This document shows, one piece after another, positions 2,976-56,700 of a stretch of DNA of 64,000 nt. Under the pieces are notes generated by a model. The model saw only the letters and a program-made list of their open reading frames with translations. It had not been told where the DNA came from and did no database searches. How positions within the stretch are numbered: the first letter of the stretch is position 1; each line of letters starts with the position of its first letter. The DNA comes from a virus (taxonomy: Duplodnaviria > Heunggongvirae > Uroviricota > Caudoviricetes). Location: IMG/VR virus record IMGVR_UViG_2878480445_000013; one strand, 5' to 3'. The position numbers were made by a program, and so were the translations under genes.

Positions 2976-2983
2976 CCTTTCCT

Positions 2984-5280
2984 TTATACAGCCTGCTCTC
3001 GTTTTGCTTTACTTCTCAGATATCTTCGGTACTGAACCGTATTGTCATACACCCGGTACGGGGCATCGACCAGCGTCACCAGCCCATCAAGGCTGCATTT
3101 CTTAAATCCCAGAAAACTGGTCAGTGTCCTCTGATTTCCACAGGTGGGCAGCGTTACACCAAAATTCGTTTCATAAAGTACGATATCGCCTTTCACCGTT
3201 CCCTTTTTCATAAAGGCGCAGTAGATACCTTTTTCAAAATGGAGCAGATCCGGTGCTTCCGCGATCCTCTCCGGCGTTATCTTCAATCGTCCTCGTTTCA
3301 GACTGGCGACCGCACCATCAACCGGCTCTCCATCCACATCCCGAAACAGGCTGCCCTGCACATCCAGCCCGTTCACCTTCAGCGGCATACCGGCGGCATT
3401 CTGTTCCGGCAGTTCTTTCAGGCAGGCAATGAAAAGGTCAAAATTTTTCTTCATAACCATAAGGGTTCCCTGTTCCTGGCTCAGCGTTTCTTTTTCCTTT
3501 CGGAAACTCTCAATTCGCTGCCGGATATCCTTTGCCAGACTTGCATAGGCTTCGATTTCAGACCCTTCTTCATAGTCAGCATGGTAGAAGCTCGTACCAA
3601 TATCATTTCCCGTCAGCCCATTTCGGATATCACTGTCAATCTCGTCCAATGTGATGTTGCCCTCCGCCAGTGATTCATTCAGTTCCAAATTCTGCTCCAG
3701 CACCGCATCCCGCATGGCCGTAACCTGACGGCCGATCGTCTCCTGCAGTTTTTCTTCCAGCTCCTTGATCTGGGCCTCCAGCGTTTCCAGTCTTTCCAAC
3801 GATACGCTGTTTCCTTTCATCTGCTGATACATCTGTTCACAGGCTTTATGAAAAAGTGTGCTGATTTCCGAAGCTTCATGGTTTTTCTCGTAATCCCGTT
3901 TCAGGCGGTACAGCATTTCCATAAAACTCTGTTCCAAGGCACATTCATGGATGCTTTCCGAAGGGCATCTTTCATTGGCTGCTTTTCTCTCGGCATCCGA
4001 CAATCTCCCGTGTTTTTCCCTGCAGTACAGCTTCTGATCCGGTGTGCCATTCTGTCTGGCTTTTCGCCCTCACGCTTTCCCATCTTCTGTTTACACCGCC
4101 ACACGGGATAAGCATATGCGTATTTTTCAAGGTAGATATCCATATCGCCACCAGTTGCTGCAAGGCTTCGGTCATCCGTGTACCCGGTTGCCACACCTGT
4201 ATAGGTCACACGGAAGAATCCCTCACCGCATTCTTTTCCGGCTCTTTCTCCATGTTCAAGAACCGCACCGCAGACCAGATTTCCAAATGGCGAGCCGGTG
4301 TATCCTCTCTTCTTCTTTTGAGCCGGTACCGAATCTCCAACCTTGCTGGGCTTTTCATAAAGCATCGTCTGAGCCTTGTCCCATGTACTGCGGTCAATGA
4401 TGCCAACATGATGGTTTTCTACATAATAGCGAGGTGCCTCACCTTTGTTGATCGTGGACCGATGGGTCAGGAAATCCTTTGTGATGGTCTTCTGCATCTC
4501 AATGTCACCCACATATTTTTCATTCCGAAGAACTGTGAGCACAGAACTTGCCGACCAGTTCTTTTTGTTCACCGTCTTTCTGCCAAGTTCATTCAGCTCC
4601 TTTGCAATACGGTTTGCCGTCTGTCCACATACATACCGTTCAAAAATATAACGAACCGTTTTTGCCTGTTCCGGATTGATCACCCATTCACCATTTTCAC
4701 CCTTGTCATACCCAAGCATCCGGTTCAGATCAATCTTCGGCTTTCCAGCCTGGAAATTTTTCTGGATCGACCAGCGGATATTGTCCGAAATGGACCGGCT
4801 CTCATCCTGCGCCAGTGCGGAAAGAATAGTCAAGATCAATTCACCGGTCGCATCCAGCGTATCGATGTTCTCTTTTTCAAAGTAAACACCAACCGGAGGA
4901 TTCTGCTGCCGAAGCTGGCGGACACAATTCAGGGTGTCCACCGTGTTTCGGGCAAATCGTGAAATCGACTTGGTCACGATATAATCCAGCTTTCCGTCCA
5001 GGGCATCTGCCATCATGCGGTTGAAATCCTCACGATGTTCCCTGCTGGTTCCTGATTTTGCCTCATCTGCGTAAATGCCTGCAAATCTCCATCCGGGTTT
5101 GTTCGTGATCAGATTTGTGTAAAACGCTTTCTGTGTGGTGTAGGAAGTCTGCTGGCTTTCATCCCCTGTGGAGACTCGACAGTATGCCGCCACACGGATA
5201 TTGCTCTGCACCTTCAGCTGACCACCGTTATGCACCGACCGCTTTGTAGCCGGTATCACTTCTACTTTTTTCTGTGTCAT
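2984..5280 (-). CDS. large serine recombinase 1 (resolvase + recombinase + zinc-ribbon domains), frame break near 3975-4000
   Basis: The 3901..5280 ORF has the resolvase catalytic region VAAYCRVSTGDESQQTSYTTQ...KSISRFARNTVDTL. The 2984..4003 ORF continues the C-terminal coiled-coil (ALEQSFMEMLYRLKRDYEKNHE), homologous to recombinase 2 residues AIEQGFMEMLYRLKRDYEENKE. The two parts are in different frames. Confidence 0.7.
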
Positions 5281-25700: not shown

Positions 25701-28639
25701 TGCTGTTACTGAGGGACGATACCGTGGATTTCATAGCATTCCAGCCGGAAGAAACTACCGATTTGATGCCATCTACCACCCCGGAGATCTTGCTGCTGAT
25801 GGCAGTCCAGATAGAAGAAACCGTGGACCGGATCGCAGAAAGGACAGTCGAAATGACCATCTTGATCGCATTCCATGCCGTACTCATCCGGGTCTGGATG
25901 CCAGTCAACAACGGAGACAGGAAGGATACAATCGCATTCCACACCGTTGTCACTGCTGTCTGGATCGCAGTCAGTACAGTAGAAACAGCTGTCTGGATCG
26001 CGGACCAAACCGTAGAGAAAGTCGTCTGCAACTCAGTCAGCAGCGGAGTCACAAAGGCGACGATGGCGTTCCAGATAGAAGTGATCTTCGTCTGGATTGC
26101 GGTCAGTGCTGCGCCGATCAGGATCTGAATCGCCTGCCAGATGGTCTCAAACAGATATTTGAACGCATCCAGCAGAGGCTTTATGGTGTTATAGATGCCA
26201 TTCCACACCGAAGTGATCGTCGTGCTGATGGTGTTCATGACCGTAGAGATCGCGGTCGAGATCGCCGTCCACACAGTTGTCACCGTGGTATGGATCGTAT
26301 TTATTACAGAAGAAACTGCTGTGGAAATAGCAGTCCAGATGGTACTGAAGGTCGTCTGGATACTCGTAAGAACAGTCGTAAAGAAGCTCGAAACTGCTGT
26401 AAATACAGTCGTTGCCACTGACTGGATAGCAGAAACTGTGTTTGAAAAGAAGCTGCTGATTCCACCCCACACGGTCTCGAAAAAGCTCTTGATACTGCCC
26501 CAGACAGTCTGCCAGTCTGTCCCGAACAGACCAAAGAACACATCCAGTGCGCTCTTTAATGCGGTAAGAGTCGTAGAGAATACAGACTTCACACCTTCCC
26601 AGATGCTGGAGAAGATTCCCTTTACCGCTTCCCATGCGCCGCTCCAGTTGCCGGAGAACACATTGGAAAAGACATCGAACAGACCCAGTAAGGTATCCAG
26701 AACGACACCGAGGATAGTCGAAATATTCTGGAATGCTCCCTCAAACAACGGTGCAAGCACTTGACAAAAGCCATCCCAGACTGCTTTCAGTACCTCGGTG
26801 ACATCCTTAAAGTCGAAGCCCAGCCCGTTGATCCGCTGTGTCAGCTGGTCGCAGAAGCCTTTCACCTTGGAAACAATGTCGTTCCAGATGCCGGTAATGG
26901 CAGTACGGAACTCTTCATTGGTGTTCCAGAGATTCATGAATGCTGCCACCAGCGTACCGATGACCGCCACCACTGCTACGACCGGCCCGGATAGACCACC
27001 CAGAACCACACCCAGCTTGCTGAACACACCGCTGGCACTGCCCACATGGGTGATGAGAAGCCGGACACCCTTTGCAAGAGAACTGAACCCCCGCATCGCT
27101 GTGCCAACCGTTGATATGGTCTTGCCAAGCACAATGAGCAGCGGACCAATGGATGCTGCCAGTAGTCCGATCTTGATGATCGTTTCCCTAGTACTTTCAT
27201 CCATACTGTTGAGCTTGTCCACGAACTGCTGCACGGCAGATACGATCTTACGGATGGTCGGCATCAGGATATCGCCAAAAGAAATAGCCAGCTCTTCCAA
27301 CTGAGATTTCAGGATGGTGAGCTGACCATTTAAGTTGTCCTGCATGGTTTCTGCCATGCTCTCTGATGCGCCGTCACAGTTTTCAATGGCACCACGCAGT
27401 TTGTTGATGTCCGTTTCACTGGAATTCATCAGGCAAGGAAACCGGACATGGCATTCTTGCCGACCAGTGCTTCTGCATTGGCTGCTTTCTCAGATTCCGA
27501 CAGCCCAGAAAATGCCACACGGCAATCCGCAAGGATATCGTTCAGGCTTCTCATGCTGCCATCCGCGTTGCTGGTCGCAATCGTGACCTCACCGATGTTC
27601 TTGCCCACAAAGGTCACTTCACCGGAAAGGTTGTTCATGATGGTACGAAGGGACGTACCTGCCTGCGAAGCCTTGATACCACTGTTTGCCATCAGACCGA
27701 TGGCTTCTGCGGTATCCTCTGCCGAGAACCCCAGTGCACCGGCGATAGGTGCGCAGTACTTGAACGTCTCGCCCATCATGGAGACATTGGTATTCGCATT
27801 GGAAGAAGCGGCTGCAAGGATATCTGCAAAATGCCCGGAATCTGCCGCAGACAAGCCGAAAGCTGTGAGGGCATCCGTAACGATATCCGAAGTCGTGGCG
27901 AGGTCTTCACCGGATGCCGCCGCGAGGTTCATGATACCCTCGATGCCGTTCAGCATGTCAGAAGTCTTCCATCCGGCCATGGCCATGTATTCCATCGCCG
28001 AAGCAGCCTCGGATGCGGAGAACTTTGTCTTTGCACCCATCTCACGGGCTTTTGCACGAAGCTGGTCGAAGTCATCCCCAGTCGCACCGGAAATAGCAGA
28101 AACCTTGCTCATCTCGGAATCGAAGTCGGCTGCCGTCTTCACTGCGGCAGTGCCAAGACCCGTTACAGCGGCAGTCACCGGCAGGAACTTCTTGCCGACA
28201 TTCTCCACAGAAGATCCGATGTTCTGAAGCTTTTCTCCGGCTTCATCGATCTTGGCAAGCGTCGCATTTGTAGTGGCCGCCTGGTCCTGTAAGGATCGCA
28301 GATTCTGTTCAGTCTCCACGATCTCACGCTGGAGGGCATCATACTGCTGCTGGGTGATCTCACCGTTGGCAAGCTGCTCATTGGCCTGCTGAGCCGCAGT
28401 CTTCAGCGTTGCCAGCTTTTCCTTGGTAGCTCAATGGCATCCTTCAGCATCTTCTGCTTCTGAACGACCAGTTCTGTATTGGAAGGGTCCAGTTTCAGGA
28501 GTTTGTTGACATCCTTCAGTCCGGACTGCGTCCCCTTGATTGACTTGTTTACACTTTCCAGTGCTTTGGAGAGCTTGGTGGTATCGCCGCCGATCTCAAC
28601 GGTGATGCCCTGGATTCTGGATGCCATGTGGATGACCAC
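22720..28639 (-). CDS. tail tape measure protein (TP901-family N-terminus), about 1970 aa, interrupted twice
   Basis: The three ORFs 28403..28639 (MASRIQGITVEIGGDTTKLSKALESVNKSIK...), 27429..28319 and 22720..27429 are contiguous pieces. At about 28410-28420, MLKDAIE continues as TKEKLATLKTAAQQANEQ in the next frame. A TGATGA junction at 27424-27432 sits between ...SGFLA and MNSSETDINKL. The 1569-aa part has periodic W/F repeats typical of tape measure proteins. Confidence 0.8.
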
Positions 28640-28891: not shown

Positions 28892-29611
28892 TCAGTTGTT
28901 ATTCTTTTCTTTTTTTGCTTTGGCTGCTTTTAGGATATCCACAAGATTATCTCCGTTTAGAACATCCGGATAATCCTCCTGAAACTCCAACAAAATATCC
29001 TTATTCTGCATTTCATCTTCACGAATTTTCTCATACAGTGCCGAAAGATCCGGATTCTGGTAAACTGCCTCGATGAAAGTTCTCGATGATTCCGGTAAGT
29101 TCTCATACCCCTCATACAATTCATCAGCAGCTCGTTTGATGCTATCTAAACTAATTTCTTTTTTAGCATTCTTTTGCTCAATAAGAATTCCTACAACATC
29201 TGACAGATCATTTTTATACTGTCTGCCTGCCATTAACTTCATTACAACCAAATATTCTGCTGATACAGTCCGGATTCTTAAAACATTTGAGAATGTCTTA
29301 TAATACTGCGAATACTGGATCAATTTAGGCGTATAAGATGCTGTCTTCATGAAGTCTGTGTTTAACCATCCATTTGGAAGGCCCATCCGGTCTCCAACAT
29401 GGTTAATGGCATCTTTCATAGAGGATGATGCCTGTATAATTGCATCCATATCGTATGTCATCTCACGAAAGCCATAATTGATGAGTACCGCTGCACCACC
29501 AATCAAAATAATTTCAGCGGGCATTCGTGATCCATTCATTTTCCTAAATTCTTTTGATAATTCTTTCAGATACCCATCCAAATTATCTTTTGTAAATGGT
29601 ACTTCAGACAA
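28892..29611 (-). CDS. nucleotidyltransferase, AbiEii/DUF1814-like toxin family (putative)
   Basis: Pol-beta NTase signature IILIGGAAVLINYGFREMTYDMDAI (hGG-x14-DhD). N-terminus LKELSKEFRKM...IGGAAV resembles the AbiEii LKGGTAL block. Low GC. Confidence 0.5.
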   Translation of the reverse strand: MSEVPFTKDNLDGYLKELSKEFRKMNGSRMPAEIILIGGAAVLINYGFREMTYDMDAIIQASSSMKDAINHVGDRMGLPNGWLNTDFMKTASYTPKLIQYSQYYKTFSNVLRIRTVSAEYLVVMKLMAGRQYKNDLSDVVGILIEQKNAKKEISLDSIKRAADELYEGYENLPESSRTFIEAVYQNPDLSALYEKIREDEMQNKDILLEFQEDYPDVLNGDNLVDILKAAKAKKEKNNN

Positions 29612-29677
29612 GGTTTCTTACCTCGCTTTCTACAATATTAAACCTCATAAACTCAGGAATTGCCCTTTTTCTTGCCT

Positions 29678-30193
29678 CTATTTTACAGTCTCACTATGCA
29701 TAACCGCAGCCTGAATCAGCACACTTGAAGGATACACCACCTGTGCCAATTTATGTCTACGGATATCGTTATAATTCGTACACATAGGAAGGTCATTAAT
29801 CTTCGACAAATAATCAATCATTCCCAGCAAGTACAAAGATTCTGGATACCACATTTTTTTATAAAGGCTTCGGATTGTATCATTTTCCAAAGTATTAATA
29901 ATAAAATCAATATCACCCATATCCTTTACATGATGGCAAGTGTTGCTTTTGAACGTTTCAAAAGAACTACGGTATTCTGCATTTTGTGCCATTTCCTGCT
30001 CATCTGCTTCCAATAAAGCATCAACTGTAACATTCAATGCTTTTGCTATTTTATATAGTGTTCCAGCTGAACATTTTTCCATTGAAGTTTTTCCACTGCA
30101 AATGTCCGATATTGTGGCTTGTGCAACACCACTTGTTTTACTCAACTTATACCGACTCATTTTGGCTTCCCTAAGAAGTTCATCAATAATCAT
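29678..30193 (-). CDS. XRE-family HTH protein with about 110-aa C-terminal domain of unknown function
   Basis: N-terminus MSRYKLSKTSGVAQATISDICSGKTSMEKCSAGTLYKIAKALNVTVDALLE is an HTH_3 fold. It lies between the AbiEi-like and NTase genes. Confidence 0.6.
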   Translation of the reverse strand: MIIDELLREAKMSRYKLSKTSGVAQATISDICSGKTSMEKCSAGTLYKIAKALNVTVDALLEADEQEMAQNAEYRSSFETFKSNTCHHVKDMGDIDFIINTLENDTIRSLYKKMWYPESLYLLGMIDYLSKINDLPMCTNYNDIRRHKLAQVVYPSSVLIQAAVMHSETVK

Positions 30194-30253
30194 GTATCAT
30201 CAACTCCTTTCTCTTATATTATATCGGCACACCGAAGTATAGTCAAGGATATT

Positions 30254-30838
30254 TTACAAAAGAACTTCCATATATCTGCGGATCACATTATCAACCCGAA
30301 ATAGCTTTGCATACTCCATGAGTCGATTCAGGTCCTTGTCTCGTCTGGAAACATATGTCTTCAGAATGGAATTGAAATCCTGTGCTTCAATACTGCTCCG
30401 GCTTCTCATCAGGTCACAAATCGTCCGTTCCAGGTCATACATCGGAATCATATTCCCGTCATTGTCTTTCACAATGATCTTTCCGACATCCAGTAATTCT
30501 CGTTTTACCGTATATACTTTACAACTTCCATCCGCTGTAAGCCGATGCGCATTGTAACCGCTGTATATGGTAAGTGTGTGGACAAACGGTTCTCTGTCTG
30601 TCAGGCCATGATAATAAAAAGCCTCGTCATGTGAAAAAACAACATTTGCACATCTTTTATGAAGCACATACAGTTCATCTACCCAATCCGATCCCGTTGA
30701 ATAAACGCCCCGGCTGACCGACTCCAATCCGTTCTCTCGGACATATTTGTAAAACTTAAATTTTGAAATTCCAGATTCTTCCGCAATTTTCGGTGTAATA
30801 TAATCATAATTTTGAACCAATCTTGTCATCTCATCCAC
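30254..30838 (-). CDS. AbiEi-family type IV antitoxin / transcriptional regulator (putative)
   Basis: 194 aa. Core ...VFSHDEAFYYHGLTDREPF...MIPMYDLERTICDLMRSRSSIE...YVSRRDKDLNRLMEYAKLFRVDNVIRRYMEVLL matches the AbiEi pattern (HETAL.LHGL.D..P, ERTICD, KD.N.L..YAK..RV). Judged from memory of the family, not by HMM. Confidence 0.55.
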   Translation of the reverse strand: MDEMTRLVQNYDYITPKIAEESGISKFKFYKYVRENGLESVSRGVYSTGSDWVDELYVLHKRCANVVFSHDEAFYYHGLTDREPFVHTLTIYSGYNAHRLTADGSCKVYTVKRELLDVGKIIVKDNDGNMIPMYDLERTICDLMRSRSSIEAQDFNSILKTYVSRRDKDLNRLMEYAKLFRVDNVIRRYMEVLL

Positions 30839-30850
30839 AGAATCACCATC

Positions 30851-30888
30851 CTTCCGTGCTTATATTGTAATCGAAATAAGCACGGAAG
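30851..30888. promoter_or_regulatory. perfect 13-bp inverted repeat overlapping a -10 (TACAAT) upstream of the AbiEi gene; probable autoregulatory operator/promoter
   Basis: CTTCCGTGCTTAT-attgtaatcgaa-ATAAGCACGGAAG. In gene orientation a -35-like TCGACT lies 17 nt before TACAAT. AbiEi antitoxins are known to repress their own promoters via inverted repeats. Confidence 0.5.
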
Positions 30889-30903
30889 TCGAGCTTTATT
30901 CTG

Positions 30904-31469
30904 TTAAAAGACATCCATGTCATGTTGAGATGCCAGCTCTTTGTACGGATAGTCGTCGTTCTGCCGCTCTGTGAACATATCATTGACCAACCCGATGGTC
31001 AGCAGGTCGAGGTCGGCGATGCTGATACCGAGCTGTACACAGCGCAGCAGAAAGAGCGGGGTGGTCATTTCCCGCTCACTTTTGCGAGGTTTTTTCTGGA
31101 TTCCACCTCGGTCTGCACATTCAGACCCCACAGTTCGATCAGCTGGGGCAGGATCTGATAAATGGAGAAGGTGTTGAACTGGTCCAGGAACTCCTCCGGG
31201 CTGTCCGGCACCTTTGCCGGGTCTGCATGACGGGCCATCAGCCATGCCAGGTCCTCGAACATTTCCAGACTGAACAGGTCGAGGTTGGAATTATCCTCGT
31301 CGTTCTCTCCTACGCTCTTTTCCAGCTGGCGCAGATCCTTGTAGATGTCGCGGCCGAACTTTATCCGGTACAGGCGAGGCACAGCGGCACTTGCCTTAAA
31401 GGTTACTTCCTTGCCATCGATCTCGATTTTCTTTGTAACTGCCATAATCGTAATCCTCCAAAATTTCAT
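30904..31469 (-). CDS. tail assembly chaperone G (31065..31469) and G-T fusion made by a programmed -1 ribosomal frameshift
   Basis: G frame ends ...VESRKNLAKVSGK*. The slippery heptamer A_AAA_AAC (plus-strand T-run at about 31090-31096) sits 9 codons before the stop. A -1 shift reads KKPRKSEREMTTPLFLLRCVQLGISIADLDLLTIGLVNDM... to 30904. The position between major tail and tape measure genes is canonical. Confidence 0.75.
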
Positions 31470-31478
31470 GTAAAATTA

Positions 31479-31496
31479 GCAGAGCCGAAGCCCTGC
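31479..31496 (-). repeat. copy A of the direct repeat GCAGAGCCGAAGCCCTGC; on the transcribed strand it forms GCAGGGC-UUCG-GCUCUGC, a UUCG tetraloop hairpin
   Basis: Identical 18-mer at 31479-31496 and 32368-32385, with about 25 bp including flanks. It lies directly after the SPFH stop and directly after the major tail protein stop. Confidence 0.6.
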
Positions 31497-31511
31497 CGTA
31501 TATCGTGTTTC

Positions 31512-32349
31512 TTACTCTGCCGAGTCAATGCTGACCAGTGCATTACCGCCGCTCACAGTCGGCAGCTTTCCATCCCACTTCTGGATCTTCTGGTAATCAA
31601 TCAGCGTATCGGACAGACTTTCTGCCAGTTTGCGGTTTGCCTCTGCCTGTGCATCTGCGGCAATGGAAGTTTTCTGGGCATCCGCCTCTGCATTGGTGAT
31701 CGCCACCTGCTTATCCGCTTCTGCCTTGGCAATGGCGGCTTCATTCTCGATCTTCTGCTTATCTGCATTCTGCTGTGCAATGGACTTCTGCTGGATGGCT
31801 TCGTTATAGGCATCCTCGAAATTCATGTCGTTGATGACGACTTTGTTTACGAACACAACGTCCTCACCATATTTCTGCACAAGAGATTCTGCCAGCTTCT
31901 GCTGCGCCAGAGGCTCGATCCTGGTGCGGTTCGTTACCTCATTGGGACCAAGTTCAGCCATCGCAGACTTGATGGCAGATGCCACCAGCTCATCACCGAC
32001 CAGATTCTTGATGTCGGACACATTCGCATACAGCCAGGCACTCTTCTCAGGAAGCACCTGATAGGTCACGATGACATCAGCAGCATACACCGGAGTCTTG
32101 TCAGAGGCTTCGCCCCAGACCTGCGCCTCGATGTGTTTATCCTGCTGCTTGTTGTTGACCTTGTGAATGCTCTGCACAAAGGGAATGCAAAAGTTGAGCT
32201 TGCCGCTCTGGATGGTGGTCTCCTGGATCTGGCCAAAGCTGGTCTTCACGCCCGTGTATCCGGTGGGGATGATGTGAAACGAACAGACAGCCAGCACCAG
32301 AACGATAATCACTGCGAACAAAGGAAAAATCTTCTTCATAGTCATATAC
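31512..32349 (-). CDS. SPFH/band-7 (prohibitin/HflC-like) membrane protein
   Basis: True start MKKIFPLFAVIIVLVLAV (N-terminal TM helix, AAGAGG RBS). The SPFH core (GYTGVKTSFGQIQ...VYAADVIVTYQV...) is followed by an A/E/K/Q-rich coiled-coil. The upstream part of the track ORF is an alternative-start artefact. Confidence 0.7.
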
Positions 32350-32367
32350 CTCTTTATAATAATGTAA

Positions 32368-32385
32368 GCAGAGCCGAAGCCCTGC
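32368..32385 (-). repeat. copy B of the direct repeat / UUCG hairpin (see 31479-31496)
   Basis: Identical 18-mer GCAGAGCCGAAGCCCTGC located 17 nt after the major tail protein stop codon. Confidence 0.6.
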
Positions 32386-32401
32386 TGTGTGTGTCGGTCA
32401 C

Positions 32402-33016
32402 TTAGCCCTGCGGCTCCTCGGTGTGACTGGTGTCTTCGGTGTCCACAGCTTCCGCCTGCGGCTCGTAGACCGCATCGTACCACTTGTTATAGACATCATC
32501 GGTGGTGTTAGTACCGGTCTTGGCCTTGACATAACCGTTTGCCAGAGGGGTTGCCTGCAGGTTCAGGGTGTCTGTCTTGACTTCCTTGCTGTCCTCGTTG
32601 GTCTCACCCTCGATGGACGGACGGCTTGCCACACAGTTGTACAGCACATGGCGGATGTGACGCTGGTCACCATCGAACTCGAACAGGAAGGCGAAATGTT
32701 CCAGTTCCACATTGGCGTTCTCAGCAAGCACGCCGTTACCATCCAGTTCCTCGTGCATGATGTCCGTGAGGAAGCTCTCCGGGATCAGCGCGATCTCCAG
32801 ATCGCCCTCGTAGCCGGAGTTGTTATTCACAACATAGTAGGCGATATTGTCCGCATAGAACGGCTCGATCTCGCCATTGGCATCCATAGAAAGACTGACG
32901 GCACCGGGGATACGGACCGGCTTTGCATAGGTGACACTGCCATCTTCGTCAAAGGTTGCCTTTGCATAGTGGCAGTTTTTCAGGCCAAATTTGACCTTAT
33001 TGCTTTTCTTCGACAT
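32402..33016 (-). CDS. major tail protein (siphovirus, TP901-1/phi13-like)
   Basis: MSKKSNKVKFGLKNCHYAKATFDEDGSVTYAKPVRIPGAVSLSMDANGE... has the typical length (204 aa). The position is head-tail genes -> major tail protein -> tail assembly chaperone G/GT. Confidence 0.7.
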   Translation of the reverse strand: MSKKSNKVKFGLKNCHYAKATFDEDGSVTYAKPVRIPGAVSLSMDANGEIEPFYADNIAYYVVNNNSGYEGDLEIALIPESFLTDIMHEELDGNGVLAENANVELEHFAFLFEFDGDQRHIRHVLYNCVASRPSIEGETNEDSKEVKTDTLNLQATPLANGYVKAKTGTNTTDDVYNKWYDAVYEPQAEAVDTEDTSHTEEPQG

Positions 33017-33050
33017 AGTGTTCCTCCCATAAAAATATCCTGCATGAGCA

Positions 33051-33368
33051 TCACACAGTCAGCTCATACAGGACTTCATACATCTTTTCGGTTTCGATCC
33101 AGACCTCGCTTTTCTCATAGTAGAGTTCGTGTGCGGTCAGGACTTCTTCAATATTTGCTTCCATATCCGGGTCTTTGTAATCGGTGTAGACCTCAATGTC
33201 CAGCCGGTTGAAATGGTGGTACACAAGATTATCCGCGCCAAAGTTCTCAGCTTTCGGATACAGGAAGCAGATAAACGGTGGATCAGGGCTCTCCCCTTCT
33301 GCGAAATGGTCATACGCATAAGGAAGCCCCATCTCCTCCACCAGAGCCTTTACTTCTTCGTGGGTCAT
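33051..33368 (-). CDS. putative tail terminator / tail completion protein (positional call)
   Basis: A 105-aa ORF between the HK97 gp10-like gene and the major tail protein gene. Confidence 0.4.
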   Translation of the reverse strand: MTHEEVKALVEEMGLPYAYDHFAEGESPDPPFICFLYPKAENFGADNLVYHHFNRLDIEVYTDYKDPDMEANIEEVLTAHELYYEKSEVWIETEKMYEVLYELTV

Positions 33369-33378
33369 TGGTTCCTCC

Positions 33379-33756
33379 TTACTTTAGTGCCTTTTCGATA
33401 AGGGACTGGAGCTGCTCGATACCTGCCTGTTCAGCCGGAGCGATATGCGGTCTTCCTGCCACACGACCGCCGCCACGCTTGGCATGACCTTTTTCCAGAA
33501 GATGCGCCAGCTGGTAGCGGTTCTTGGAATGCACCACCATCTGAAGACTCTGACTGGATTCGGACTGCTTGGTCGCTACCCAGCTTCCCTTGTATGCGCC
33601 CGTCCGGGACGGTGCATTGGCCGAAATCTGGTCTTTGACCGTTTTCGCAGATTTGCGGACTGCCTTCTTAACCTCGGTGGAGGCAAGGGTCGCATATTCT
33701 TTTAAGCCCTCGTTGATGGCATCTGCCATCTCATCGATGCTGACAGTTCTGCTCAT
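33379..33756 (-). CDS. HK97 gp10-family head-tail joining protein
   Basis: MSRTVSIDEMADAINEGLKEYATLASTEVKKAVRKSAKTVKDQISANAPSRTGAYKGSW fits the HK97_gp10 pattern. Confidence 0.6.
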   Translation of the reverse strand: MSRTVSIDEMADAINEGLKEYATLASTEVKKAVRKSAKTVKDQISANAPSRTGAYKGSWVATKQSESSQSLQMVVHSKNRYQLAHLLEKGHAKRGGGRVAGRPHIAPAEQAGIEQLQSLIEKALK

Positions 33757-34450: not shown

Positions 34451-35655
34451 TTAGCCCTGCGGTGCCATCTGCAGAAGCTGTACGGCTTCGGGCAGGATCA
34501 GCTTGCCATCCACACGCTGGGTGGTCAGGAAACCGACCTGATCAGTACGGGCATACAGCTCGTTCAGACGGCGGAAGGTGCGGTTCTGGCGGTCAGCCAC
34601 CCAGTAGTAGCTGTAATCGCCAAAGGCCATGACCTTGCTTCCACCCTTGATCTCCGGCATGAAGGCGGAAGTCTTCAGCGGACGGTTCAGCAGGGTATCC
34701 GGCTTGCCGATCTCCAGACCCGGCTTCCAGATATAGTTGCCGTTGTTATCCTTGATGGTCATCAACTGCAGCACCAGGCTTCGTTGCAGAGGAACTGTGC
34801 CTTCTTGCGGTACGGAGCCTTCAGTGCATAGTAGAGCTTGAAGATCTCATCGAAGGTAACGGCATCCTTCTGGGCAGCGGTCACACCGACCTTGGCACCG
34901 CCGGTCTCTGCCAGCAGACCCAGAGGCTTGCCCACACCGTCGCCGGTGATAAAGGCACGCTCCTCTGCGTTGCCCATACGCACACCGAAACGGCGGGCAA
35001 TATAGGTGGCAAGGTCAAAAGCGGAATCGTTCAGGAGTTCGTTGGAGATCTTGATCATGGTGCCCAGCTTGTATGCAGACAGCATGGTCTGGCCGAAGGT
35101 AGTATCGCTCTCCGGGATCTCCTCACCCTCATCGATCCAGCTTGCCTCACCGGTATCCTCTGCGATGGGGATCTTACGGGTGCCGGAGCTGGTGCGGATG
35201 ACCGTTGCCAGACCACGGAAGATGTTGTTCTCCTCCAGTGCCTCCACCAGCTTCTTCTCGAACTCATCGGGAACGGTAAAGCCGCCCTCGGTGTCCTCAC
35301 CCACAGACAGGGCATTGCGGACCTCGCCGTAATGGCCACGGTTGCGGATCATGTTCCAGAAGTTCTCGGCATACTCGGCAGTGGCGGTCGGCTTGACATC
35401 CTTCTTGGCACCGTTCTTCGGGTCAGCGTGGACAGGACTGGAAGTCGGTGCGGACAGCTGTGCCTCGATCTGTGCCTGCTGCTCCAGACGCTCGATCTCT
35501 GCACCCAGGTCCTTGACCTCCTGTGCCATCTTGTTGTACTGCTCCACGGCCTCAGCCTTTACCAGACCGTTCTCGCCGCGGTTCTTCTCCAGAAAGTCCT
35601 TGGTCTGCTCCCAGAGAGTGTTGCGCTTGGTGCGCAGTTCCAGAATCTTACTCAT
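34451..35655 (-). CDS. major capsid protein, HK97 family; frame break near 34770-34790
   Basis: ORF 34762..35655 has an N-terminal delta domain and the capsid core (...GGFTVPDEFEKKLVEAL...NELLNDSAFDLATYI...) and ends KAQFLCNEAWCCS*. ORF 34451..34774 continues ...LQLMTIKDNNGNYIWKPGLEIGKPDTLLNRPLKTSAFMPEI..FGDYSYYWVADRQNRTFRRLNELYA, which is canonical HK97 capsid C-terminus. Confidence 0.75.
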
Positions 35656-36612: not shown

Positions 36613-38017
36613 CGGGTTCTCCTTCTTTCATTCTTTCGTGGCTTACTCTCACTCAGCCGATTTTCGCTGTCAGGTTCTTCTTCCGGGTCTTGTTCCTCTG
36701 GCTGTGTCTGTTTGGGCTGATTCTGCTGGACTGCGGCAGCTTTATTCTGCTGCGCCACCCCTGCATCTTTCAGCTTCACATAGCCGCCGTTCAGGTAGTA
36801 GTCATCTCCGCCCTCCTCTGCCGGGATGAGATCCATGTTCTCCAGACGATGCACATCATTCGGAGAGAGGAAGCCGTTGCTGATGCCGGTCGCATAACCG
36901 TTCATCCGGCTCTGGTAGTCGCCACGGAGCAGACCGTCCACATTGAATTTTGGAAAGTAGGTATCCTGCTCCTCTTCCAGCAGAAGATCCTTGATGATGC
37001 CCTGCTCGATGCGGACAAGCCACGGAGTCAGGGAGTGCATCACGAAGTTCAGCGACTGGTATTCAATGTTGGAGAATGTGGCTCTGGACAGATCGGCTAC
37101 CAGATGCGGAGGCACACGGAAGATGCGGCAGATCTCCGTCACGGAAAACTGCTTCGTTTCCAAAAACTGGCTGTCTTCCGGCGGCAGGGAGATCGGTTTG
37201 TAGGCCATGCCCTCTTCCAGCACTGCCACACGATGGGCGTTCGCTGCGCCACCATAAGCCGCTTCCCAGCTATCGCGGATACGGTTCGGGTCTTTCACAA
37301 CGCCGGGATGCTCCAGCACACCACTGGGCTGTGCGCCGTTCTTGAAGAAAGAGGAACCGTATTTATCTACCGCAATGGAAGTACCGAGGCTGTTCTTCAT
37401 CATGGCGATTGGCGAGAAACCGATCAGACCATTAAAGCCAAGCCCCGGCACATGAAAGATCTCGTCCCGGCGGAAGTAGATGTCCTTGTTCTGCTCTCCC
37501 GGAACTTCATCCGTGTATGCGTGGTAGATATAGTAGAGCTCGCCACTTTCATCTCGGTCAACTTCGACATTTTCCGGCAAAAGCGGATACAGACCCAGCA
37601 CCGTGTTCTTGCCATCCCGGACGATCTGTGCGTAGCGTTGCCCCAGAGAAGCAGATGGGTCATCAGCGTTTCCCAGAAGACAAAGGATGTCATCTCCGGG
37701 TTGGGCTGGCGATACAGGATCTTATACAGCGGATGATCCCTCGCCTTTTCCTTGTTGCCGTTGTCGTCTGTCATCCGGTACAGATGCAGCGGCAGTGCCG
37801 CAATGGACTCTGCCAGCAGACGGACACAGGCGTACACAGTCGGGATCTGCATGGCTGCTTTCTCATCCACCTGCTCCCCGGCATTGGAGCGACCAAACAC
37901 AAAGGTCTGCCCGGAATCGCGGACGTTATCCGTGACCTTCGGCAGACCTTCTTTTGGCTGTTCTGTTTTGGGAGAATCCCTTGGATTCTCAAACCCCATC
38001 CATTCCCAGAATCCCAT
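36609..38017 (-). CDS. portal protein, HK97 family; single frame break at about 37640
   Basis: ORF 37424..38017 ends ...ETLMTHLLLWGNATHRSS. The adjacent frame reads YAQIVRDGKNTVLGLYPLLPENVEV, which runs into ORF 36609..37601 (MLGLYPLLPENVEVDRDESGELYYIYHAY...). Inserting one base after GGCAACGC joins them. Confidence 0.75.
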
Positions 38018-56482: not shown

Positions 56483-56700
56483 GTTCTGTCCTCTCTTTCA
56501 TGTATCACAAAGCAGGCCGCCTTTGCCCATGCCCACAAATAGGCTCCCACAAAGACTGCCTGCTCTGTCTCGGTTAAATATTTCGGTTAAAAGAACCACG
56601 TTCTGTCTCTCACAAAATGGGGCTGTTCAAAAAGCCGGGCCACCCAGATGAAAAGCAGACCTCAAATTCTCTTATTTGCTTTTCTTCTTTTCAACTCATG

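Follow-up and report, generated by a model that had tools for sequence, protein, structure and literature searches.

An SPFH gene bracketed by duplicated hairpin spacers in the tail operon of a human-gut siphophage

The 64,000-nucleotide stretch analysed here (IMG/VR virus record IMGVR_UViG_2878480445_000013, Caudoviricetes; hereafter the window) belongs to a temperate siphophage of human-gut Clostridia that is related to the Candidatus (Ca.) Heliusvirales phages, and it carries, between the major tail protein gene and the gene in the tail assembly chaperone position, a gene for an SPFH/Band_7 protein flanked by two identical hairpins. The module lies on the minus strand and reads, in the 5' to 3' direction of the transcript, portal, ClpP-type protease, major capsid, connector genes, HK97 gp10-like gene and tail terminator, continuing on the same strand with the major tail protein, hairpin B, the SPFH gene, hairpin A, the chaperone-position gene, a small open reading frame (ORF), a low-GC three-gene island and the tape measure. 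The features that bear on the present analysis, from upstream to downstream in the transcript, are the following.

33379-33756, minus strand: HK97 gp10-like gene
33051-33368, minus strand: tail terminator gene
32402-33016, minus strand: major tail (tube) protein gene, upstream neighbour of the putative cassette (phrog_88, 6.7e-59; Pfam tail tube PF06488, 1.7e-07)
32340-32401, minus strand: spacer B, comprising the tail-protein stop, 16 nt, the hairpin, TTACAT, an AT-rich stretch, an AAAGAGG ribosome-binding site (RBS) and the SPFH start
32367-32386 (core 18-mer 32368-32385), minus strand: hairpin copy B, an 8-bp stem with one G.U pair and a UUCG loop closed by C-G
31512-32339, minus strand: SPFH/Band_7 gene, 275 aa (PF01145; phrog_200)
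31446-31511, minus strand: spacer A, comprising the SPFH stop, 15 nt, the hairpin, the AATTTTACATGAAATTTTGGAGG RBS region and the chaperone start
31478-31497 (core 18-mer 31479-31496), minus strand: hairpin copy A, a terminator-like site (31497-31478) with AAUUUUACAU after the stem
31065-31445, minus strand: gene in the tail assembly chaperone position, downstream neighbour of the putative cassette (phrog_709, 1.2e-39)
30904-31068, minus strand: small ORF with a 4-nt overlap with the chaperone stop (phrog_3033, 4e-20 over its last 54 residues)

The label 'chaperone' for 31065-31445 is based on gene order, phrog_709 not being a named family. The small ORF at 30904-31068 closes the conserved block, ahead of a variable cargo slot, and the same layout is seen in the relatives L001-L003 and L154/L156 (L numbers designate the sequences compared with the window). 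The major tail protein is 100% identical in many IMG/VR contigs. Translation of the SPFH gene is taken from the conserved ATG at 32339; the ATG further upstream at 32345 is missing in most relatives.

The two hairpins share a core 18-mer, GCAGGGCTTCGGCTCTGC, which is present at 31479-31496 and 32368-32385 with 0 mismatches between the copies and occurs exactly twice in the 64 kb, no third copy being found in the window with up to 3 mismatches allowed. The chance expectation was 0.10, and 0/100 shuffles reached 2 matches. A repeat search extended the match to 29 nt at 86% identity (31471-31499 and 32360-32388). The centroid structure of either copy is an 8-bp stem with a UUCG loop, spacer B folding at about -15 to -16 kcal/mol, and the copies occupy comparable places, with hairpin B beginning 16 nt past the tail-protein stop codon and hairpin A 15 nt past that of the SPFH gene. 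The initial annotation had described an SPFH gene bracketed by two identical 18-bp repeats folding as UUCG hairpins, and the exact positions, the folds and the shuffles all agree with it.

Similarity between the two spacers continues beyond the hairpin, as they align weakly along their full stop-to-start length, sharing TAAG..ACAC.. on the 5' side and TTACAT, an AT-rich stretch, an RBS and ..GA(C/T)TATG on the 3' side. This flank similarity exceeds that of most shuffles (upstream, 81/2000; downstream, 39/2000). In many relatives the spacers have more in common, for example TACGATTATG ahead of both start codons and GACACAC ahead of both hairpins, and some alleles possess a longer common left flank, GACACAC-N-GCAGGGC.

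All 68 unique spacer units compared form the hairpin when folded one sequence at a time, at -12 to -24 kcal/mol. We tabulated stem pairs from these single-sequence folds after registering them on the conserved GC(A/G)G anchor, a procedure that leaves a few GCGGC-starting sequences off by one step. Counted over the 68 units, 53 have A-U and 14 have G-C at pair 2, 36 have G.U and 23 have G-C at pair 4, and 36 have C-G and 18 have A-U at pair 6. Since G.U pairs are A.C mismatches on the other strand, the constraint points to the RNA level and to the sense transcript. Moreover, stem diversity was 0.0 (copy B, 24 spacer variants) and 0.014, compared with 0.05-0.19 in the flanks (0.09-0.10 in those of spacer B), such that in the window clade no part of the spacers varies less than the stems, while neighbouring genes reach a synonymous divergence (dS) of 0.3-0.66. 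The loop is found as UUUG, UUCA or CUCG in relatives and is 8-10 nt long in a sister lineage; as both its sequence and its length vary, the UUCG tetraloop is not essential, and only the stem is conserved.

RNAalifold, applied to a MAFFT alignment of 34 spacer units, returned no consensus structure, the variable loop length having misaligned the 3' arms, and no Rfam covariance model matched at E <= 1 on either strand of 30800-33100. Copy A was scored as terminator-like (in the window and also in L005) and copy B was not; the U-tract is weak and not conserved, and a homologous hairpin exists without the SPFH gene. Compensatory changes and low stem diversity indicate that the hairpins are sense-strand mRNA structures kept by selection, and not an inert scar, in line with the initial expectation of a functional mRNA element at this place.

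A (C/T)TACAT motif lies 3' of all hairpins at this junction, after copy A and copy B (31469-31473, 32362-32366) as well as in the single-site lineages, and the motif is conserved across phages whose tail proteins are only ~72-75% identical. A role as part of a promoter was considered, as the motif overlaps a -35-like (C/T)TTACA with a -10-like TA(C/T)GAT 16-17 nt further on; this was rejected, the -10 ending 1-2 nt before the ATG and not being conserved in the single-hairpin lineage. Rejected, too, was the ATG within TACATG as an alternative chaperone start, which is in frame in some alleles only, runs into a stop in the sister lineage and is missing from copy B. A further TACATGAAAGAGAGG is located behind a weak hairpin at window position 56504 (minus strand).

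To survey the junction in close relatives, we took the best 80 of 215 tail-protein relatives in IMG/VR, all with at least 88% identity, and sorted them by what follows the tail protein gene. Among these 80, the SPFH gene is intact in 67, disrupted in 6 and missing in 2, and 5 contigs end too early, giving 67 intact genes in 75 informative contigs. The disrupted genes include a 371-bp deletion (L028, L037, L062) and a 509-bp deletion (L032). In the two contigs without the gene (L009 and L018), the junction consists of the left flank of B, one hairpin and the right flank of A, and the two BLAST pieces overlap by the 21-nt hairpin. Obtained from different metagenomes (samples 3300029374 and 3300014948) and measuring 47.8 and 29.4 kb, these contigs are identical across 6.6 kb and differ from the nearest filled alleles by 1-2 nt in 5.7-7.8 kb of flanking DNA. 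So little divergence in the flanks implies a recent precise deletion between the repeats, and not an ancestral state.

Such deletions are rare, with 2 empty junctions against 73 that carry SPFH among IMG/VR contigs anchored on the major tail protein. In metagenome contigs, a strict empty-junction pattern had 0 matches, whereas the matched filled-junction pattern had 115, which renders the zero informative. A looser empty-junction pattern was unspecific, as 2 of its 12 matches were truly empty and the rest were filled alleles with a GACACAC-like left flank of the A copy. It had been anticipated that relatives would show a single-hairpin empty site, and such sites do exist, both here and in a sister lineage described below (L158-L205), but L009 and L018 represent a derived deletion and not the pre-insertion state.

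The same junction accommodates other DNA in two relatives. In L082, a 231-aa ORF with HNH and AP2-like motifs (recognised by eye) is inserted at 2983-3678 in spacer A, between the SPFH and chaperone genes, and L323 probably has an insertion of the same type, with ~780 nt between these genes. The L082 ORF resembles a free-standing homing endonuclease and would be a second kind of insertion at this hairpin junction.

More distant relatives provide a view of the deeper history of the junction. The nearest annotated phages are human-gut 'NatCom' phages of the Ca. Heliusvirales (L001-L003; 66-71% DNA identity), and these relatives have a gap of 1-13 nt between tail protein and chaperone genes, with neither SPFH nor hairpin; L234-L313 likewise have a tight junction, no hairpin and no SPFH. 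That SPFH-less relatives join the tail protein directly to the chaperone agrees with the initial view that the SPFH gene does not belong to the conserved tail module. In L154 and L156, an SPFH copy only 72-78% identical to that of the window occupies the same slot, and the hairpins, which differ from each other and from those of the window, are each followed by (C/T)TACAT and an RBS. A sister lineage without SPFH (L158-L205; 27 unique spacers), whose tail proteins are 72-88% identical to that of L156, has a spacer made of a single GGC(A/G)GGG-loop-CCC(T/C)GCC, then CTACATGA(A/T)TTTTGAGAGGAG, with an RBS, and the chaperone start. The right part of spacer A matches this single spacer, and its hairpin is plainly homologous to copy A of the window. 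In a neighbour-joining tree of tail proteins, the groups follow each other as the tight-junction clade, 3 SPFH carriers, 22 single-hairpin variants, and 24 SPFH carriers with the L009-type deletion nested among them.

An insertion that would have duplicated the spacer is well supported by these comparisons. The proposal of an insertion by recombination at the hairpin is thus supported in part, with the corrections that the insertion is old, the gene being fixed in a broad lineage, and that a hairpin-first order is ambiguous on the tail-protein tree.

SPFH genes related to that of the window are also found outside the tail slot. One of them (L157, 1476-2309) is 76% identical to that of the window and lies among small ORFs, a metallophosphatase, YonV_C and an RNA ligase, with junctions of 4-10 nt and no hairpins; this copy is closer to that of the window than are the tail-slot copies of L154 and L156, and it shows that the bare SPFH ORF moves horizontally between gut phage types. 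Strictly lytic phages (AR9/PBS1, T4-like, Vi01-like; PMC1524935) and early regions of Faecalibacterium phages harbour more distant homologues, which are 22-29% identical. In the literature on phage SPFH proteins we found annotations only and no assigned function, and the Heliusvirales paper mentions neither SPFH nor prohibitin.

The encoded protein matches PF01145 Band_7 at 64.4 bits (cut-off 23.6; E 1.8e-17; profile positions 2-175 of 176) and phrog_200 at 9e-40, bearing out its membership of the SPFH family over the whole domain. Only one 19-residue window exceeds 1.6 on the Kyte-Doolittle scale (residues 1-31), the maximum elsewhere being 0.87. An AlphaFold2 (AF2) monomer model of moderate confidence (mean predicted local distance difference test, pLDDT, 71) predicts a transmembrane helix at about residues 5-20, an SPFH domain at 21-173 (strands in 21-95, then helices, then a strand at 162-173) and a single 78-residue helix at 175-252, the tail being unmodelled. 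Foldseek placed prohibitin (E 1.7e-14) and HflK/C (3e-13) at the top, followed by erlin, stomatin and QmcA, and the closest solved structures by sequence are prohibitin 1/2, HflC and QmcA, with prohibitin best. The modelled succession of N-terminal anchor, SPFH domain and long helix is the architecture of the SPFH proteins that form cages. According to the positive-inside rule, applied to the N-terminal MKK, the bulk of the protein would lie outside the cytoplasmic membrane, as in HflC and prohibitin.

The narrower label 'HflC-like' had to be given up, because the NCBIfam HflC equivalog models failed (TIGR01932, 22.8 bits vs 134.4; NF008259, 29.8 bits vs 427), no second Band_7 ORF and hence no HflK-type partner was found in the 27-38 kb part of the window, and the best solved relative is prohibitin; no NfeD partner gene lies nearby either. 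A search with PADLOC-DB v2 returned 0 families at E <= 0.01 for the SPFH protein, with a neighbouring ORF as positive control (AbiEi, 1.4e-63). A lipoprotein reading, suggested by the label of PHROG 200, was discarded, as by inspection LAVC is without G/A/S at lipobox -1. A link to the ClpP/NfeD-like prohead protease, prompted by a weak NfeD1b_N match in L156, was set aside, ClpP-type prohead proteases being general in HK97-like phages. Three imperfect 29-nt direct repeats (72% identity) lie in the SPFH coding region at window 31674-31783, corresponding to the A/E/K/Q-rich long helix.

Relative to the window copy, the median ratio of nonsynonymous to synonymous divergence (dN/dS) was 0.036 for SPFH, 0.01 for the tail protein and 0.014 for the chaperone. 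GC content at 31-33 kb is 0.525-0.528, similar to that of the flanking phage genes, compared with 0.37-0.40 in the adjoining AbiE island. From these comparisons, the SPFH gene is a long-standing resident under strong purifying selection in a broad lineage, and not a recent arrival. A scan that covered sigma-70 consensus sites only detected no usable promoter before SPFH in the window, L005 or L156; the sole match in L005 (CTTACA-16-TATGAT) ends 1 nt before the ATG, in contrast to the AbiE island next door, which carries an 11/12 consensus match. With no usable prophage promoter and no PADLOC match, the suggested roles in lysis-lysogeny control, FtsH modulation and superinfection exclusion found no direct support.

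Taken together, we regard it as probable that the locus represents a long-established accessory-gene cassette of the late tail operon, encoding a late-acting, membrane-anchored SPFH protein. The gene would have entered by recombination at, or with duplication of, the hairpin spacer. For the hairpins, a leaky attenuator or 3'-end stabiliser after the abundant tube protein would be the most economical role, such that the tail tube protein would be made in excess over downstream products, with SPFH, and then the chaperones, positioned behind successive attenuators. As direct repeats, the hairpins also serve as a substrate for precise excision, and one natural allele has that deletion. SPFH would be co-transcribed with the late genes and, in what is the weakest step of this model, could oligomerise late in infection into a membrane-anchored ring or cage. 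Such a ring might fence off a patch of host membrane or an FtsH-type host membrane protease and thereby keep the membrane intact, or shield membrane-active phage proteins, up to the moment of lysis; it would not be a prophage-expressed immunity function. Three points lead us to favour a late membrane role, namely the place of the gene in the operon, the missing usable promoter and the homologues in lytic phages; homologues in strictly lytic phages argue for a role during infection.

A number of observations weigh against this explanation. No conserved U-tract follows the hairpin on its 3' side, which makes attenuation a guess, and neither the promoter nor the start-codon reading accounts for the conserved TACAT. 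On the tail-protein neighbour-joining tree, SPFH groups stand on both sides of the single-hairpin group, with 4 changes by Fitch parsimony and an ambiguous root state. The absence of a promoter is a result of the sigma-70 consensus scan only. Confidence in the AF2 model (pLDDT 71) is moderate. The gene is disrupted in 6 of 75 contigs and one lineage has lost it, making it dispensable at least for persistence. Finally, several heavily deleted prophage remnants have kept an intact SPFH gene (L140, L321, L322, L324), an anecdotal observation that hints at a benefit to the lysogen and suits a prophage-expressed function better.

The order of events could have been different, with the cassette arriving as hairpin-SPFH-hairpin in a tight junction and all single-hairpin phages, including L158-L205, being secondary precise deletions, in which case the hairpin would have come with the cassette and would be no older element of the tail operon. 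We consider this unlikely, yet a scenario to be taken seriously. Precise deletion between the repeats does occur, as L009 and L018 illustrate, the outgroup has neither hairpin nor SPFH, and the placement of SPFH groups around the single-hairpin group, together with the ambiguous Fitch root, would fit; furthermore, in L163 the SPFH gene sits behind a hairpin of the 'single-site' sequence type. However, the single-hairpin lineage is deep and diverse, as its 27 unique spacers and the 72-88% identity of its tail proteins to that of L156 attest, and it has a conserved long loop of its own, ATGAAA(T/C)ACT, that is absent around SPFH in the window clade. Moreover, the L157 gene, which has no flanking hairpins, indicates that the ORF travels alone, and either order still needs an insertion that left duplicated spacers.

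The main functional rival to a late-acting protein is a classical moron, expressed from the repressed prophage and protecting the lysogen, for example by blocking the entry of superinfecting DNA, as does HK97 gp15, encoded in the same operon. Here, too, the tail operon has acquired a membrane protein, and HK97 gene 15, the precedent studied best, encodes a superinfection-exclusion membrane protein (PMC3594210). The gene is intact in degraded prophages that lack upstream capsid or tail genes, as well as in the window, whose prophage may itself be defective (capsid gene frameshift). Nevertheless, we find this reading doubtful, as there is no usable sigma-70-type promoter in the window, L005 or L156, while the AbiE island has its 11/12 match, the GC content is not foreign, no PADLOC model matches, and strictly lytic phages, as well as early regions of other phages, contain homologues.

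A bolder extension of the cassette model, which we would rate as quite improbable, takes the hairpin-TACAT spacer to be a dedicated cassette-exchange site of this very prevalent gut-phage lineage, working by short-homology capture and release as a late-operon equivalent of the promoter early stem-loops (PeSLs) of T4, and SPFH to be an outer-face cage of the prohibitin/HflC type, placed late in infection around host FtsH or a membrane patch, that shields the hydrophobic tape-measure protein or the holin, or times lysis. If so, the site would hold SPFH as one ORF and the HNH-AP2 endonuclease (L082, probably L323) as another, and with the cage the widespread phage SPFH family would receive its first assigned function. 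Finally, it is hardly credible that the two hairpins arose independently as convergent terminator-like structures, or that an assembly artefact accounts for the empty allele, without any duplication or excision: short GC-rich hairpins are common after highly expressed genes and the empty allele is known from two metagenome contigs only, with a ~21-nt repeat that equals a common minimum k-mer, but the copies are identical at 18/18 positions with 0/100 shuffles containing two, the similarity runs into both flanks, the two contigs (47.8 and 29.4 kb, identical over 6.6 kb) come from different metagenomes, and the single-hairpin state is seen independently in 27 spacer variants of the sister lineage.

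Downstream of the cassette, the low-GC (0.37-0.40) three-gene island occupies window 28892-30838 (minus strand), between the small ORF after the chaperone and the tape measure, and encodes AbiEi (PADLOC, 1.4e-63), an XRE-type helix-turn-helix protein and a DUF6036 nucleotidyltransferase, with a promoter (TTGACT-17-TATAAT, 30246-30218) and a strong terminator (28885-28858). The cargo slot has its boundary at a perfect inverted repeat of 13 bp (12-nt loop; window 30851-30888), located right after the small ORF and right before the AbiEi RBS. L154 and L156 have Abi_2 and RelB/YoeB in this slot, and L318 and L330 carry different cargo there; what is the place of the gene 15 moron in HK97 looks like a variable hotspot for defence and toxin-antitoxin genes here.

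Upstream, single-base deletions (GCCC to GCC) at 34779 and 34223, relative to relatives with intact genes, frameshift the major capsid gene, which is thereby split in two (ORFs 34762-35655, 34451-34774), and lie in a connector gene, and the ORF list also splits the portal (~37424-37601) and the tape measure (27429 / 28319-28403); either the prophage is defective or these are consensus errors. In the prophage remnants L140, L321, L322 and L324, large deletions fuse capsid-gene fragments to the C-terminus of the tail protein or to SPFH, or replace everything upstream. The SPFH genes of L140 and L324 are without the first 2-3 residues, SPFH being otherwise intact or nearly so in these degraded prophages.

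Annotations of phage SPFH or prohibitin-like proteins go back to 2006 or earlier and cover lytic as well as temperate phages from many hosts. The lineage described here is very common in human-gut metagenomes (215 IMG/VR tail-protein relatives, 115 exact junction matches), with prophages in Blautia, Clostridium fessum and Faecalibacterium; copies 97-99% identical are carried by Clostridium fessum SNUG30386 and Blautia faecis DFI.3.66. Only 2 nt in 6825 separate the prophage regions of L318 (the Blautia faecis DFI.3.66 genome) and L325 (Faecalibacterium intestinale CLA-AA-H281), yet the host genomes are assigned to different bacterial families. This points to a host range that is very broad or recent, or else to one assembly being contaminated or mis-assigned. 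The locus offers a clean experimental handle, namely a strongly constrained gene, a defined transcriptional context and a natural, near-isogenic precise deletion. With both end states in hand, it illustrates how a short RNA hairpin can be an expression element and, at the same time, the homology for gene gain and loss in a rigid structural operon. Conceptually this is not new, as morons, PeSLs and phage SPFH genes are all known; the locus is a clear yet unexceptional example of how phages turn over accessory genes, in which the evolutionary part of the initial annotation holds with corrections, and its value lies in being a well-characterised example and an experimental entry point.

The architecture of the locus can be compared with several known systems. 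Hairpins with an extra-stable C(UUCG)G tetraloop were reportedly described in intercistronic regions of phages by Tuerk and colleagues in 1988, and those of the window share with them the UUCG loop, its closing C-G pair and the position immediately behind a gene of high expression, but differ in that the tetraloop is dispensable here and the stem alone is conserved. With prohibitin 1/2, HflK/HflC-FtsH, QmcA-YbbJ, erlin, stomatin and flotillin, the protein has in common the Band_7 domain, the N-terminal anchor and the long C-terminal helix. Identity to the cage-forming members is ~18-23%, however, and the window has a single gene without an adjoining HflK-type or NfeD partner, the likeness to a cage being one of the predicted model.

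Morons are defined as extra DNA of deviant GC content with a promoter and terminator of their own (PMC3594210). The SPFH gene has one of the three features that we compared, as it is extra DNA, absent from L001-L003, L158-L205, L234-L313 and L009/L018, with neither a deviant GC content nor a promoter of its own. Similar to HK97 gene 15 and other lambdoid morons (Juhala et al. 2000; Cumby et al. 2012; PMC3594210), it is an additional, hairpin-bounded membrane-protein gene in a tail operon, absent from related phages; unlike them, it has no usable promoter, a native GC content and a position fixed across a deep lineage. HK97 gene 15 lies between the chaperone and the tape measure, whereas here the AbiE-like island holds that slot, with SPFH one junction upstream.

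A closer parallel for the repeats is provided by the PeSL cassettes of T4-type phages, in which repeated intergenic stem-loops bracket a non-essential ORF (Arbiol et al. 2010, PMC2839356; Comeau et al. 2014, PMC4122927). Recombination between neighbouring PeSL copies deletes or shuffles the ORF, and the L009/L018 allele is exactly such a deletion. PeSLs differ in combining a strong early promoter with an effective terminator and in being present in many copies in hyperplastic early regions, whereas here there are two copies only, in the late structural operon of a temperate siphophage, and no promoter part that looks functional. Lastly, the gene belongs to the same family as other phage SPFH or 'prohibitin family' genes (PHROG 200; Faecalibacterium phage FP_Toutatis gp21, Bacillus AR9/PBS1, T4-like RB43/44RR/Aeh1), which are 22-29% identical and reside in early or non-structural regions; among phage SPFH genes, only this gut-phage lineage fixes the gene between tail tube and chaperone with duplicated hairpin spacers.

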